Below are positions 2-11,405 of a stretch of DNA of 64,000 nt, one piece after another. Every line of letters begins with the position of its first letter. Position 1 is the stretch's first letter. Origin of the DNA: Myxococcales bacterium (GTDB taxonomy: Bacteria > Myxococcota > UBA727 > GCA-2721815). The notes under the pieces were generated by a model. That model worked only from the letters and a program-made list of their open reading frames with translations. It was not told where the DNA came from and did not search any database. The translations under genes were made by a program, and so were the position numbers. The stretch spans positions 288,317 through 352,316 of the forward strand of contig PBLQ01000001.1 of the NCBI GenBank assembly GCA_002721815.1. Direction: 5' to 3'.

Positions 2-3000
2 CTCATTGGCTGTCCCGGTGCGCCAGAAGAAGATCCGGTGAAAATCGAAGGCGATGATGCAGGCGAATGCTCGGACGAGGCCGACAACGACAATGATGGT
101 CTCTTTGATTGTGATGATGAAGGCTGCAAAGGCTCTCCTGCCTGTAAAGAAGAACCAGCAACCGAAGGCACCGGCGATGGCAACACCGATGGCGCGACTG
201 AAGATGCAGGAAGCAGCGATGGCTCGGGTGAAGGCAACACCGATGGCGCAACTGTAGATGCGGGCAGCAGTGATGGTTCGGGTGAAGGCAATGGCGAAGG
301 CAACACCGATGGCGCAACCGCAGATGCGGGAAGCAGTGATGGCTCGGGTGAGGGCAATGGCGAAGGCAACAACGATGGCGCAACCGAAGATGCGGGAAGC
401 AGTGATGGCGCGGGTGAGGGCAATGGTGAAGGCAACACCGATGGCGCAACCGTAGACGCAGGAAGCAGTGATGGCGCGGGCGATGGCAGCACCGATGGCA
501 ACGACGAAGATGACGGCATTCCAGATTATACCTGTGAAGTGGCCACCGATCGCATTGGCGAGCTGCTTTCCTGCGATACCGATCAAAACTGTCCGTGCGG
601 CGCTCATTGTGTGTTCAGCATGTGCTCTTTTGGTTGCCATGAAACGCCATCACTGTGTGAAGATGATAAAACATGTGACTTTTTCGGCCGCTGCAAAGAG
701 AATACCAGCCCCAACAATGCACCGGGTATCAACGCCAAACCGAGGATAGCCGTGCACGTGGCACCTAAAAATTTGTCATTCGTGAATACCGATACAGTTC
801 AAGAACTCTCTTTTAATATCGACAGCGGGGAAGACCCTCAAACAATTCGAATACAAGCCCAGCAGGGGCTGGCCCTTAACTGCGACCCTGATAACAGTGA
901 TGCCTGGGAAGAAGAAGCCAGTGCAGATTTCCTCGAACTGAATCACGACCAATTCGGACCCAGCTGTAATGTCGTAATTGACAGTGATAAAAACGTCAAA
1001 ATCGGCGTCAAAGCCCTCACCTTACCCGCGCGATCGGGTGAACCAGAAGAGGTTGAATCCATCGTTAAGTTGGTCCATATTTTTTCTGAAAATGATCATT
1101 TCACCATCCCCACCGCTCTTTATAAACCCGAAACCACCATCCCCGAAACGCTCACAGAAGGCCGCTACCAAGGCTTCTATCATCTTTCGGAATTCGTTGG
1201 TTACAACGCAACCGACTGGACTAATTGGCTGAATGAAAGCCCGAATGACACAGTGAAACACCCTCTAATTTTTGATGTTTTTCCAGCCGTGCGCGATTCC
1301 GATCTATGGGCTGTTCGCATCACCGATCCTACCCAGTTTCTTTTAGGTAAACACGAACACGTGGGCTACATTTTTCAAGGTGGCCCTTTCCAGTATTTCA
1401 ATATTCCCGCCAGCGAATACCTGTCATCCATTTTGCCAGGGGGCGGAGACTCTTTTACCCTTTACGCCCAGGGCTACGGTCGCGTTCAGGGTCAAAACGC
1501 GCAGAGTATTTCAGGTAACCTCCAAATCCAAATCGACGGAGTGACCGATTCAGACTTTGATGTGCCATACATCGACTGGAGTTACGCCGTGCACCGAACG
1601 GGTGATGCAGAAGGCATCGCCCCCACCGCCAATGCGCTCGAAGACGAAGAGCGCCCAGAAAATTTCTACACCCAATTGAGCGGGGACTTACCCTGGGATG
1701 CCGTGACCAAAGAGGCCGTACGTGGGTTAGAGGTTGAAAATGATTCCGTCTACTCGGATCTTCGCTTGATGGAGTGGTTTTATAGAGAGTACGATGGCTC
1801 GCTTTTTTCTTGTGAGTGGGAAGACGATTTTGACTTTGCCACCTCCTTCGAATGCGGTTGCGGTTTCGCCACTGATAATTCCTTTCCTACTTCGTGCGGT
1901 ATCCTGGAAGATGCAGGGGCCACCTGCTACCCCACAGGATCCAACTGTGGCAATACAGGAGGTGATTTTGGGTTCGATATCCCAGGCAGCCCACAAACTT
2001 GTATGTTTTACACATCAGACCTCCCCATCAATGACGATGGTTACGCAAACAACTCCTCCGAGAAATCATTCCAATGCGCACAGCGCTACATGTGCTTTGC
2101 CGGTGAAAATGGTGACCTTGACAGCAGCAACCTCAACAATGTCTTCCACAGCATTTCAGGTGACTTGGAATGCAACGCTGGGCACGCGCAAAGCACATTC
2201 CCTATTTTACAAAAAGAAAGTACCGATGAAGTTCTTGATGCGCTTTCTCTCCTGCAAAAATGCCGCGCCGACCTTGCACGCACGCCACCCGACTTGACCG
2301 AAGATGATTTTTCTGAGGCGCGCGGGGGACTCTCTGCCGCTGGCACAGAAGGCGCTATGGGTAAAGTCTTTGACAATGCGGGCTGTCTGTCGTTCCCCCG
2401 CTTTTATAGAGCGCTTCACTTCGCATCTTTGAATCGTGACTGGTTCTTCATTGGCAATGAGAGCACCTACACCAAGTCTGACAAGCTCTTTGCACGGCTC
2501 GTAGGTCAGTGGCTGCAAGTCAACAGCTTCGTGGCCAATGAGACACGCCGGCAGGGTGAACTGGCACAACTTTTTGATGATGACCAAAATGATTTGGAAC
2601 AAATGGAGGCGACCCTCGATCAGCTCAGTGATGCCATAGGCTTCCTCCTGCACCCCCGAATCGCTCACTCCCTGGCCACACTCTCCACAGGCGCCATTTC
2701 GAACGGAGATTATCGCGAAGAATTTATCGTTGCTGTCCCGGTTGGAGAAGACAAAAAAGGCGACGTGGCCATTGGAATTCCCACTCTGATGGTAGAAACC
2801 TCGACCGAGATCTTAAAACTATTAGAGTGGTACGCCGACAAAATGCGACGAAAGGCCTACAATGGCGATTACGACCTCACACTTTTACTGGACGCGGTCC
2901 ATACCACAACCCGTAAAATACTTTGGGTGGAATACTGGGCCCGATACCTCCACCAGCGCACCTCCAATCCCAGTTGGGGCGAACGGTTTGAAGACGGGTT

Positions 3001-11400: not shown

Positions 11401-11405
11401 ACTAG
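5421..11405 (+). CDS. SpvB-N domain / FG-GAP (VCBS-like) propeller / RHS (YD-repeat) protein with a C-terminal polymorphic toxin-like domain. Architecture resembles a TcB-TcC (BC) fusion or teneurin-like toxin.
   Basis: RBS aagagg at 5409-5414, ATG at 5421; the longest ORF starts at 5370. The N-terminus is signal-peptide-like (MRLIMNLHSALTLGVSLSFLSVSPAVHA). SpvB/TcB N-terminal signature present (SMSLMYDGSLGSGAMGMGWKIDVPRIERKTQKGVPTF). Six D-x-N/D-G-D-G-x-x-D FG-GAP-like repeats (e.g. DVNQDGLADML, DMNGDGRTDAV, DFNGDGLADIV). Many YD repeats (YTYDDMGRL, YVFDELGRL, YSYDQYGRP, YTYDTFDRL). RHS core ending in YFHNTGLTGG...YSPYGSLLEG...YYGGRWYAPQWSQWLTADP...HPYAFNAGNPVNKIDPDG, then a unique C-terminal tail of about 215 aa. 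Confidence 0.85.
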   Translation: MRLIMNLHSALTLGVSLSFLSVSPAVHALNEPAAGSLSPSTLKSPSGPASIKGLAQDPSLSLFSAQIQYQIPIDLPAGPGGIKPSMSLMYDGSLGSGAMGMGWKIDVPRIERKTQKGVPTFTSADELILNGVAFAGDMIADDDGTYWVAGQGLKAKGAQAGNGYVFTDSSGTQYLFGITANGRQASGADTFGWWLEKLENIHGQEIFFYYTQHEGQIYPDKIQYGPADAFVIEFQYETRDDVVLDYKKGFSVRTEKRLQNIVVNAFDEVLKTYHLTYEEKRGLSRLSQVRMTGRGGEGEMPALSFGYEEADNFEMVEVTEQAPWLLHDPNATWLDVNQDGLADMLDLAAGNYRYALNTGNGFSQARNFTGYNSTNLSAQQIRFMDLSGNSRAELVVSSGSGWNVYNLVGEDFTSAGSWSNTWDVPLHDASWRFADMNGDGRTDAVKQLSDGLSIRWGEDNGMSDPFAVTFSSDLMGLSITDPNTHLQDFNGDGLADIVKTSDDDVMVYHGLGDGNFSEVASFNVNLAGFVGNQIRLADLNRDGITDLVLIDGSYVEWVPIYPTYRVGDVVPLESPDDGSEATVMITDFNGNGSQDVVWSSYNDLYYLDLAGPTHFGMLTTVQNGFGKTTTYAYSSSAALAQAALEADEPWSFALPSAMPVPIQQTHTFASGEPDQVSLFSVRDGFWDGEERRFGGFLLSETTSQGVTPVNTLVEEVIYHPGIGEERCLRGKVVQKTRKDGNGKVFDVEQNTYDAFGLSLINSDHPKLKMPLPLSNTKNIYEGSTTPVSIKTEYSYNEYGQKSQEHHHGRLDMDQDQKIIHTQYANNFTEWVLDKKAETYTSEDSTSAHYQKTRYFYYSDDGNILDNGESGNGLLAEIKQYNQEEDRWLDVAEKQYDTAGNEIWNKAKGVVSDIIYDNDKLFAIEEKLNRGDGTFWSWTAQWDKTLGKITSVTSPDGVIESSHYDSLGRLTGQSRNNGEPFITYAYDWDNPFSTITETENANTDSPFVKTNIMNSNLQPVFSRVTMANSQRLIGALSFYDERGELVKKHQNFFTTEDTPGESDYENISALLLEKDALGRDIRSTGLNGVVQNITHHASRTHTAVAGIGDSIIELDGLGRRTAFTRQGEDQTIETRYYYNVLDLPASITKNNDAWQKSFSYNSMGQLIQSQSPEVGVSYYTYDDMGRLKTRTNAESQERSYVFDELGRLIEKKDNEGISYKYHYDEQHPDFGDWQENVEGRLSWIEEPNGFRAYSYDQYGRPDKAHQNILGISVAMQKEMLPSGTLSAFHLDDLTISYQYNNAGQLTEIENVWEAEEITADGIITRERFANGVLQTKELDENMRAVAVKTFNDDTVFQHQEMTYNNHGALSAVDDLIESDFSRTVQYTYNKLNQIVSAEYDDFEVDYAFDALGNLTSKTVTGQNAPLQNQTLQYGLNGQSVHQLSQFNDTGFNYDLAGRIIGAGTAAYTYDTFDRLKSIDNENEQATYTYGHDDALQVSRSNGTIQSLRFENGIFWEDQNTFLYVQNNGRMLARLPISPISNDLVGAGSNSGAGFIFPLQNYFFLTAVILLLVLMLQSKSRRRLVLATLVFLSCDPNSDDTPQEQKTNQQNTDQDLFDTDPPASPPRDAGPNNTTANDGGTPLEFTDDGGTSLELFDDGGVPHLQELNALYFHNTGLTGGIALVTSEAGQLLEGRLYSPYGSLLEGTQDMDTHGAVGKHQDKLSGFQYYGGRWYAPQWSQWLTADPLLYWPGEDLINQGSTLHPYAFNAGNPVNKIDPDGARTEEYMGLDFSQDGRTILGTTKSSYFGGKVFKYSSAILFGALTAGMGTVASVGAGLALEGGKAAITGELQYVKDFLIGEAKAEALGRMNGHKGIASAVLLGVEVAKDAMEMPGKLESIFVQQMALKVMAERGVGYHSRHNGGLRISSQFGDAKGWNERTLKTALKGEYNIAYFYVLGKAKKMGYDLSTATGRSDFKGSFEQAKKHGHWAGLEREY

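Follow-up and report, generated by a model that had tools for sequence, protein, structure and literature searches.

Most of what is known about Tc/ABC toxins comes from pathogens of insects and humans, in which they occur as released particles of 1.5–2.5 MDa. Cell lysis, and not the Sec pathway, sets the canonical toxins free, and to our knowledge their subunits carry no signal peptides. The channel is formed by the A subunit, whose pore domain in TcdA1 comprises approximately 310 aa. In the “Type 3” ABC layout, which has been proposed to be ancestral, a single TcA without receptor-binding inserts is combined with a fused TcBC (Low et al. 2025, PMC12705794). A separate class of polymorphic toxins, TcdB/TcaC, is reported from delta-proteobacteria, among others (Zhang et al. 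2012, PMC3482391).

Here, we describe a two-gene locus from a marine Myxococcota metagenome-assembled genome, which likely encodes a two-component Tc/ABC-type toxin in a very divergent, exported form. This Tc-like variant is exported, lipid-anchored and small, and it is devoid of the TcA receptor-binding inserts. The features of the locus are listed in Table 1, where positions refer to the window, i.e., the whole 64,000-nucleotide stretch of DNA that was analysed.

Table 1. Features of the two-gene locus, with window coordinates, strand and the basis of each assignment.
Feature	Position	Strand	Basis
Gene 1, TcA-like channel subunit	2..5446	+	ORF; full protein and contig read; TcA fold match
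End of lipoprotein signal peptide, lipobox L-I-G-C, Cys codon 11-13	2..13	+	Contig N-terminus
Acidic Gly/Asp/Ser/Thr low-complexity tether	149..571	+	Translation; Tandem Repeats Finder; pI 4.05
Cys-rich knot, then tandem Ig-like (ASH/PapD-like) beta-sandwich domains	641..1663	+	AlphaFold model 2, Foldseek
Alpha-helical region resembling the TcA shell-type helical domain	2054..3823	+	Helices over model 1 residues 71-660
Long helical hairpin, candidate pore-forming channel	3881..4552	+	DSSP helices 680-756 and 769-903 of model 1
C-terminal beta domain resembling the TcB-binding domain, end GLFGKYDLFF...LDDIKLHFTYLY	4688..5443	+	
Shine-Dalgarno-like AAGAGG, 6 nt 5' of the gene 2 start, within the gene 1 end	5409..5414	+	Sequence read
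Gene 2, Sec-exported TcB-TcC fusion, 1994 aa	5421..11405	+	
Gene 2 signal peptide MRLIMNLHSALTLGVSLSFLSVSPAVHA	5421..5504	+	Translation
SpvB/TcaC N-terminal domain, aa 66-132	5616..5816	+	Pfam PF03534, E 6.6e-15
FG-GAP beta-propeller and TcdB mid-N	6441..7532	+	PF13517 (E 1.2e-20), PF01839, PF12256 (E 4.9e-20)
RHS/YD-repeat shell	7698..10040	+	PF05593 (E 9.5e-21), TIGR01643; contig record: TEN_YD-shell
Inserted membrane-anchor-like module	10041..10460	+	Hydropathy, sequence
Rhs-associated core, TADP...IDPDG	10503..10757	+	TIGR03696, 45.2 bits vs cut-off 32.5
Cargo tail, 215 aa, 23.1 kDa, pI 9.3	10758..11402	+	Downstream of DPDG

The initial annotation had read gene 2 as a TcB-TcC fusion based on the order of its SpvB, FG-GAP, RHS and Rhs core domains, followed by a tail of about 215 aa after DPxG. 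Pfam and NCBIfam confirm this order, and DPDG is indeed followed by 215 aa. The proposed profile check recovered PF03534, TcdB_toxin_midN (aa 570–704) and RHS_repeat, while TcdB_toxin_midC was not detected in gene 2; PF03534, PF13517, PF01839 and PF12256 each score above their own cut-off. The best PDB sequence matches are TcdB2-TccC3 and YenB, and most related BC fusions also bear N-terminal hydrophobic signals. The Rhs-associated core (aa 1695–1778, NCBIfam) ends in PVNKIDPDG (aa 1770–1778), an instance of the PxxxxDPxG motif with DPDGA at aa 1775, which makes IDPDG a candidate self-cleaving aspartyl protease site. The tail beyond it combines an N-terminal half with a hydrophobic Gly/Ala zipper and a basic C-terminal half. 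It has no match in Pfam, NCBIfam or the PDB, and its sole relative found is one 128-aa fragment. Since 97.9% of TcC variable regions span 201–400 aa (PMC7861908), the 215-aa tail falls within the TcC range and qualifies as variable cargo. No immunity gene was seen downstream of gene 2, a point against the Tc reading.

Gene 1 had initially been described as encoding a secreted protein of more than 1800 aa that is cut by the window edge. Just the first 15 residues fall outside the window, on its upstream side, and the product is thus essentially complete. The full protein comprises 1829 aa, and its start, MTMLRTLLFLSCAFTLIGC, as read from the contig, is a lipoprotein signal; accordingly, size and export stand, and the protein is more precisely a lipoprotein. 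Lipobox-type N-termini recur throughout the gene 1 family. The G+C content is approximately 50%. Within the tether, Tandem Repeats Finder identifies a 66-bp tandem repeat in 3.9 copies (positions 230–488). AlphaFold model 2 of the N-terminal part (pLDDT 70–89, residues 10–350) contains beta-sandwich domains that match hydin/ASH and PapD folds in Foldseek searches, with no TcA-specific match, and the modelled Ig-like region is likely a binding module. In the models these sandwiches precede the helical part and are not inserted into it, and Pfam detected neither neuraminidase-like nor RBD A-D domains in gene 1. Export signals on both proteins, unlike canonical Tc subunits, speak against a Tc reading of the locus.

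The structural evidence on gene 1 comes from an AlphaFold model of aa 615–1814 (model 1; pLDDT 75.8, pTM 0.61). All of its 22 best Foldseek PDB matches are TcA subunits (E 1e-6 to 1.5e-4, probability 0.99–1.00), including TcdA1, XptA1, XptA2, TcdA4, YenA2 and TcaA-TcaB, with up to 1058 aligned columns, and the first match to another fold follows at E 0.016 and probability 0.09. Global TM-scores to TcA are low (0.13–0.19), a point against the Tc reading, and sequence identity over the aligned part amounts to 9–14%. Approximately 1000 columns of the model, the shell-like helical region included, align to TcdA1, XptA1 and XptA2. The Gly-rich hairpin noticed earlier is found in the model as well: its helices comprise aa 1294–1370 and 1383–1517, and the Gly/Ala-rich stretch AIGSIAGALVKPTPAAIVGGIAGGYSAIFG (aa 1363–1392, nt 4088–4177) forms the tip between them, itself modelled with low confidence. 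Family-wide, this tip shows moderate hydrophobicity and conserved Cys residues on its flanks, and it is in the hairpin that BC-adjacent A-like proteins are matched. The C-terminal beta domain, the best-conserved part of the gene 1 family, matches the TcB-binding domain. Judged from the models, gene 1 is therefore predicted to adopt the TcA fold, with a helical shell, a long hairpin channel and a C-terminal TcB-binding beta domain.

The relationship to TcA is hidden from direct sequence searches. The profile search of gene 1 suggested at the outset returned no Pfam family at all, including the TcA domain models (VRP1, neuraminidase-like, TcA_TcB_BD); a PDB sequence search gave no match for either the single sequence or the family profile, and direct hhalign of the family against the TcA C-terminus yielded E 0.01 at a probability of 4%. 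Intermediate sequences bridge this distance. In profile comparisons, the C-terminus of the gene 1 family matches 44 BC-adjacent metagenomic A-like proteins with a probability of 99.8% (E 1.4e-27), these 44 proteins match the canonical TcA C-terminus with 94.6% (E 6.7e-8; 515 columns, up to the last residue), and a merged profile matches TcA with 91.5% (E 8.5e-7). By this profile chain, gene 1 appears to be a remote TcA homologue in its pore-forming and TcB-binding region.

The two genes overlap by 26 nt, as initially annotated, the best start of gene 2 being ATG 5421 and the stop of gene 1 TAG 5444–5446; the earlier wording “co-translated” is reduced to translationally coupled at most. The statement that no partner of canonical TcA size can be confirmed also holds, as gene 1 is complete at 1829 aa and is preceded by an Fpg glycosylase gene, and hence no larger A gene is concealed outside the window. 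The gene 1 family is restricted to Myxococcota, comprises 434 clusters (50% identity) and is represented in neither Pfam nor NCBIfam; the source name of one member is “hypothetical”. Relatives of gene 1 are located directly upstream of BC genes in the loci L012, L044, L083 and L101. Together with the window, these BC-linked members form five basal branches of a neighbour-joining tree that carries no support values and whose basal taxa are long-branched.

Co-conservation, on which the initial annotation had made its reading depend, is found from the side of gene 2 rather than gene 1. Among 54 metagenomic signal-peptide BC fusions for which sufficient upstream sequence exists, 47 are preceded by a related A-like gene on the same strand; of the 71 family members in the tree, 66 lack a BC neighbour. 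A BC neighbour occurs at only 3 of approximately 72 genomic family loci, the window's own counted. The scarcity of family loci with a BC neighbour, like the missing direct sequence match between gene 1 and TcA, counts against a Tc reading.

These numbers could also be taken to mean that the genes are adjacent without being partners, gene 1 encoding a free-standing surface lipoprotein (an adhesin or a ClyA/XaxA-type pore former) and gene 2 a self-sufficient RHS toxin of the “TcdB/TcaC pathway”. We consider this rather unlikely. BC-less family loci do have heterogeneous neighbours (RCC1, FG-GAP, PMP-repeat and kinase genes), and toxins with signal peptide, SpvB, propeller and RHS domains constitute an export class of their own (PMC3482391). 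A match of aa 1310–1445 to XaxA is weak (E 0.005, 16 bits vs a cut-off of 125); it is not significant, and an XaxA-type assignment of gene 1 was rejected. Against separate genes stand the exclusively TcA top matches of the gene 1 model, the similarity of the best-conserved family part to the TcB-binding domain, the gene overlap, and a BC linkage that is basal within the family and general across the wider superfamily. The pair of an A-like and a BC-like gene proposed initially is thus supported by both the fold matches and the profile chain, and the possible objection that gene 1 might lack any similarity to TcA structures does not apply.

Gene 2 contains an insertion between the RHS shell and the Rhs core, which is composed of a Gly-rich stretch, a TM helix (aa 1556–1578), QSKSRRR, a second hydrophobic stretch ending in a lipobox-like FLSC (Cys 1592) and an acidic/Pro linker of approximately 95 aa. 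With the MYXO-CTERM (TIGR03901) and “lipo-invert” (NF058595) signals, the module shares the succession of Gly-rich stretch, TM helix, Arg cluster and Cys-terminated hydrophobic stretch. However, those signals are C-terminal, whereas the gene 2 module is internal and followed by the Rhs core and the cargo. The BC genes of L044, L101 and L103 contain this module too. The L103 copy scores above the cut-off for MYXO-CTERM; of the copies scanned, those of the window, L044 and L103 all match “lipo-invert” weakly, the window copy with E 0.15 at best. Neither the lipid anchor of the A subunit nor the membrane hairpin within the BC protein fits the released-holotoxin model, an observation at odds with a Tc reading.

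The 140-aa low-complexity insertion, together with a gene 1 product about 700 aa below canonical TcA length, might alternatively indicate a decaying relic that has lost its function. This is very improbable: both frames (5.4 and 6.0 kb) are intact, the insertion is kept in the diverged relatives L044, L101 and L103, and gene 1 retains Cys, Gly and Pro positions that are invariant in its family. Still more improbable is that gene 2 encodes a teneurin-like protein of bacteria or an Rhs effector of type VI secretion, with gene 1 as an unrelated accessory. In favour of this stand the TEN_YD-shell entry for gene 2 in the contig record, the occurrence of teneurin-like proteins, predicted to be lipoproteins, in more than 20% of Myxococcota species (PMC13018210), and weak PDB matches of gene 2 to Tse5 and T6SS Rhs cores. 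However, the definition of teneurin-like proteins requires an FN-plug, an NHL propeller and a YD shell (PMC13018210), whereas in gene 2 a Sec signal peptide is followed by SpvB, an FG-GAP propeller and TcdB mid-N, and Pfam and NCBIfam detect neither a PAAR nor a VgrG domain.

Under the preferred reading as a divergent, exported Tc toxin, gene 1 would provide an A subunit with a lipid anchor, an acidic tether of approximately 150 aa, Ig-like binding domains, a shell, a hairpin and a TcB-binding-like domain. Gene 2 would form a fused BC capsule with a propeller gate and an RHS shell enclosing the 23-kDa basic cargo. Both products would be exported by Sec, and the A subunit would be lipidated and oligomerise, the probable site being vesicles or the exterior of the envelope. 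The BC capsule would then dock onto the C-terminal domain of the A subunit, and cleavage at DPDG would free the cargo within the shell. Upon contact with the membrane of a target organism, the hairpin may insert and let the unfolded cargo pass through to exert its putative activity.

A broader scenario, which we put forward tentatively, joins a founding, envelope-tethered Tc injector with a large BC-less clade of TcA-derived lipoproteins that act alone. In this scenario, the A subunit would sit on its lipid anchor via the long acidic tether, the BC protein would be held by its internal sorting-signal/lipobox hairpin, and predatory Myxococcota would use the complex on the cell surface or on vesicles against prey. 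In most of the 434 clusters the BC partner would be lost, and the proteins might, e.g., be stand-alone pore formers.

Read as a Tc toxin, the locus broadens the range of the Tc machine to include predatory bacteria of soil and sea, as well as a large protein family without annotation, whose 434 clusters can now be assigned a fold and a likely origin. In this locus and 47 related metagenomic loci, signal-peptide BC fusions are usually paired with a sequence-invisible A-like partner, which suggests that the Tc system is far more widespread among environmental bacteria than is apparent from domain searches. A lipoprotein of 1.8 kaa would be among the smallest A subunits that we know of, and its size bears on the engineering of Tc toxins for protein delivery. 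The locus is also a testable candidate weapon of myxobacterial predation.

Among characterised toxins, the best structural matches of gene 1 and sequence matches of gene 2 lie with Photorhabdus luminescens TcdA1/TcdB2-TccC3 (PTC3), Yersinia TcaA-TcaB and YenTc. Size and basic pI of the gene 2 cargo are typical of Photorhabdus and Yersinia Tc toxins, while the predicted hairpin of gene 1 (approximately 224 aa) is shorter than the TcdA1 pore domain. The TcdB/TcaC-class polymorphic toxins, as set out in the accessible text of PMC3482391, have exactly the layout of gene 2: signal peptide, SpvB, integrin-like propeller, RHS and variable toxin. That text describes no A-like partner for the class, whereas most such genes considered here have one upstream. 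Compared by architecture, the Type 3 ABC toxins differ from the locus in several respects: gene 1 is invisible to the Pfam and NCBIfam TcA models and measures approximately 1830 aa versus roughly 2400–3500 aa, both proteins have export signals, the A protein is a lipoprotein whose N-terminal part carries Ig-like domains in addition to an acidic tether, the BC protein contains an internal membrane-anchor-like module, and the host is a Myxococcota MAG. Yet, the Type 3 toxins share with the locus an A gene followed by a fused BC gene, an A protein without receptor-binding or chitinase-binding inserts and with a predicted shell, hairpin and C-terminal BC-docking domain, and a BC protein composed of SpvB, propeller, RHS shell, Rhs core and a variable tail.

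The best-supported reading of the locus is a two-component Tc-like toxin, in which gene 1 encodes the candidate A subunit and gene 2 a TcB-TcC (BC) fusion. The window (G+C content about 50%) opens within a long forward-strand ORF, which extends back to base 2 without a stop codon and ends at 5446; a second ORF comes after it and runs to 11405. The most likely start of gene 2 is ATG 5421, with AAGAGG six bases ahead of it, and gene 1 terminates with TAG at 5444-5446, thus yielding the 26-nt stop/start overlap already proposed in the initial annotation. The same annotation took gene 1 to be cut by the window edge and recommended inspecting the upstream DNA for its 5' end. 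On the contig, the start is located merely 45 nt before the window, and the gene upstream codes for an Fpg-type DNA glycosylase. Therefore, gene 1 is essentially complete, and there is no larger A gene upstream. The protein is recorded exactly as P0001 (1829 aa, [quoted passage not shown]); its N-terminus, MTMLRTLLFLSCAFTLIGC, is a lipoprotein signal with a lipobox, and its acidic tether is encoded by a 66-bp tandem repeat.

The domain order of gene 2 is as first annotated. Pfam searches placed SpvB at aa 66-132, along with FG-GAP_3, FG-GAP, TcdB_toxin_midN (570-704) and RHS repeats, each scoring above its cut-off, and NCBIfam assigned the Rhs-associated core to aa 1695-1778. The core terminates in PVNKIDPDG (aa 1770-1778), followed by a tail of 215 aa (23.1 kDa, pI 9.3), a length within the size range that covers 97.9% of TcC variable regions (PMC7861908). 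The closest solved relatives by PDB sequence search are TcdB2-TccC3, YenB and TcdB1. Like nearly all related BC fusions collected, the protein opens with a Sec signal peptide. This layout matches the TcdB/TcaC class of polymorphic toxins as that class is described in a 2012 catalogue (signal peptide, SpvB, propeller, RHS and variable toxin; PMC3482391), and hence, gene 2 is a member of an already known kind. The tail itself comprises a hydrophobic Gly/Ala zipper in its first half and a basic second half; it matched nothing in Pfam, NCBIfam or the PDB, and a single fragment was the sole relative found. Since the tail of another BC protein (metagenome locus L103) likewise begins with a Gly-rich hydrophobic stretch and continues with what by eye resembles an HNH-type nuclease motif (CENCGC...DHVHPESQGG...CRECNLDKSN), the zipper may be an entry element that different tails have in common, and not the toxin proper.

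Gene 1 and its C-terminal pieces lack significant matches in Pfam, NCBIfam or PDB sequences. NCBIfam returned only a sub-threshold acidic double-disulfide repeat and XaxA at 16 bits, so far under the cut-off of 125 that an identity as XaxA was rejected. A word-index protein search recovered only the protein itself, or two extra proteins when the family alignment was used, and a profile of 27 family members found nothing among PDB sequences. An exhaustive HMMER search yielded 434 cluster representatives at E <= 0.001 (197 at E <= 1e-30), mostly 1500-1800 aa long, with 24-32% identity to gene 1. Scanning one genome per species produced 80 family loci, and those with a taxon name below phylum all fall within the Myxococcota sensu lato (Myxococcales, Polyangiales, Bradymonadales, Kofleriaceae, Archangium); more than one copy is present in several genomes. 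Lipoprotein signals form the N-termini across the family, and conserved Cys pairs flank the tip of a helical hairpin, which fits an extracytoplasmic protein.

An AlphaFold model of gene 1 aa 615-1814, based on a 47-sequence alignment (mean pLDDT 75.8, pTM 0.61), consists of a helical region, a very long helical hairpin (model residues 680-756 and 769-903) and a beta domain (949-1195). The Gly-rich hydrophobic hairpin noted in the initial annotation is located at the tip of this long hairpin, where model confidence is low. In a Foldseek search of the PDB, the first 22 matches (E 1.3e-6 to 1.5e-4; up to 1058 aligned columns) are without exception TcA subunits (TcdA1, TcdA4, XptA1, XptA2, YenA2, TcaA-TcaB); a lack of structural similarity to TcA, which would have spoken against the proposed pair, was thus not what was found. 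Match 23 is a TcdA1 fragment resolved with TcB (TM 0.49 relative to the target), and the first unrelated fold after the TcA matches reaches only E 0.016 at a probability of 0.09. A second model (aa 205-700) is confident for residues 10-350 only, which comprise a Cys knot and tandem ASH/PapD-type Ig-like sandwiches, and its Foldseek search gave no TcA-specific match.

At the sequence level, the profile comparison proposed at the outset failed when done directly but succeeded through intermediates. As TcA reference we used the C-terminal 720 aa of SepA (plasmid pADAP) and nine other annotated plasmid TcA genes. Against this profile the gene 1 family was colinear but non-significant (E ~0.01, probability 4%), and against SepA alone it was likewise not significant. 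The canonical TcA C-terminal HMM matched neither gene 1 nor the ORFs upstream of BC genes that resemble its family (A-like ORFs). [quoted passage not shown] ORFs upstream of these BC genes show recurrent matches to the gene 1 family HMM over its hairpin and C-terminal part. Searching with SepA by phmmer recovered none of the upstream ORFs, and none of the five scanned contained a Pfam TcA domain. A profile of 44 BC-adjacent A-like proteins matched the gene 1 family (probability 99.8%, E 1.4e-27) as well as canonical TcA (94.6%, E 6.7e-8, 515 columns, reaching the last residue); a merged profile scored 91.5% against TcA, and smaller subsets 42-76%. The proteins also share an end motif, which reads GLFGKYDLFF...LDDIKLHFTYLY in gene 1, RGLYGDYALF...VDDILLRxDY in the family consensus and ...LSDIILHIRYT in SepA.

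The two genes are co-conserved, as the proposed pairing implied, only in part. Where at least 4 kb of DNA precedes the BC gene, 47 of 54 loci carry an A-like ORF upstream on the same strand (superfamily level), L101 being an eighth unscored case missed through an over-extended ORF call; of the 55 loci in which an A-like ORF lies upstream, 31 have no more than 200 nt between it and the BC gene. Most relatives of gene 1 have no BC neighbour. In the genomic set, a BC gene comes immediately after the family member only in L012 (gap -1 nt) and L044 (12 nt), and the metagenome set adds two BC-upstream family members (L083, E 2e-128; L101, E 1e-32). The remaining genomic neighbours are a mixed set (RCC1, FG-GAP/disintegrin, PMP-repeat, kinase and prismane genes); apart from the rare BC gene no conserved neighbour was found, other families recurring in at most eight loci. 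In a neighbour-joining tree of 546 C-terminal columns, with BC-adjacent A-like proteins as the root, the basal branches are the five BC-linked members (the window's among them) and the 66 BC-less members make up one derived clade, a split that is suggestive only, because the tree has no support values and its basal branches are long. The BC-less clade is confined to Myxococcota, in which a genome often holds several copies, and its members retain a conserved TcB-binding-like C-terminal domain despite having no BC gene nearby. In the metagenome loci, ORFs of ~300-400 aa often lie between the A-like and BC genes; a small ORF in L145 and in L149, which matches the A-like C-terminal profile, may be a split C-terminal piece, and the others could be a third component.

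Gene 2 further harbours an insertion of ~140 aa between the final YD repeats and the Rhs core. It opens with a Gly-rich stretch and a hydrophobic helix (aa 1556-1578); after QSKSRRR comes another hydrophobic segment running to FLSC, which fits the lipobox pattern, and then an acidic/Pro-rich linker of ~95 aa. The same arrangement is found in the BC genes of L044, L101 and L103, and the insertion occurs in all three BC genes, the window's own counted, that are linked to a gene 1 relative and have this region visible. The L103 copy exceeds the curated cut-off for MYXO-CTERM sorting signals (24.4 versus 20 bits) despite its internal position. Scans of the window, L044 and L103 copies gave a weak resemblance to "lipo-invert", an NCBIfam C-terminal anchoring domain, at sub-threshold E values of 0.0014-0.15, and a literature search retrieved no work on this domain. 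We infer that the insertion might form a membrane hairpin whose Arg cluster faces the cytoplasm, and that it may serve to tether the capsule protein or to split it.

Downstream of gene 2 there is no immunity gene on the same strand. The next gene was rejected as a candidate, since it is convergent and its product is exported with a MYXO-CTERM-like tail; the protein weakly matches the MXAN_5453 MYXO-CTERM-anchored family (E 7e-4, far under the cut-off). The adjoining kinase/TPR run has no evident connection to the toxin locus. A MopE-type motif protein is encoded further downstream, and in L025 another one (12984..15200) immediately follows a gene 1 relative; the 2289-aa protein represents a eukaryote-like domain mix within a bacterial genome.

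Features of the proposed toxin locus and neighbouring genes
Feature	Position	Strand	Remark
Gene 1, candidate A subunit	2..5446	+	first 15 residues upstream of window
AAGAGG	six bases before ATG 5421	+	sequence read
Gene 2, BC fusion, 1994 aa	5421..11405	+	
Internal sorting-signal-like module of gene 2	10041..10460	+	precedes Rhs core
361-aa exported protein, MYXO-CTERM-like sorting tail ...DEGCGCSQTQTQRRGEGFWHVGWLVLVFLFRRKNRRFLL	11425..12510	-	convergent with gene 2
Three-gene run: Ser/Thr protein kinase with C-terminal PEGA domain, periplasmic-binding-protein-like gene, TPR protein	12520..16603	-	
MopE-type putative metal-binding motif protein	19985..21424	+	
2289-aa protein: 11 Sushi/CCP repeats, several EGF/cEGF/EGF_CA domains, RCC1-like propeller repeats	25341..32210	+	

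By homology to Tc toxins, the complex would assemble on the envelope or on vesicles, the gene 1 hairpin would insert into the target membrane, and the basic 23-kDa cargo would pass through. The class of gene 2 and the A+BC logic are already known. A literature search on Tc toxins in Myxococcota retrieved nothing beyond one paper on teneurin-like proteins. What appears new is the recognition as TcA-derived of a Myxococcota lipoprotein family that is absent from Pfam and NCBIfam, its one named member being termed "hypothetical", a broader set of A-like partners, invisible at the sequence level, for signal-peptide BC fusions, and the export and anchoring features of the two-gene locus. Its architecture is the one recently named Type 3, in which a single TcA without receptor-binding inserts is combined with a fused TcBC; this form has been suggested to be ancestral, and no structure of it has yet been solved (PMC12705794). 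The gene order is opposite to that on the Burkholderia plasmid pMSMB0856, where an annotated BC fusion (2653 aa) precedes a TcA-like "neuraminidase-like domain-containing protein" (~3475 aa). Compared to classical TcA, gene 1 is ~700 aa shorter and begins with Ig-like domains. In contrast to all described Tc toxins, the A and BC proteins are both Sec substrates, the former being a lipoprotein with an acidic tether and the latter containing an internal anchor-like module.
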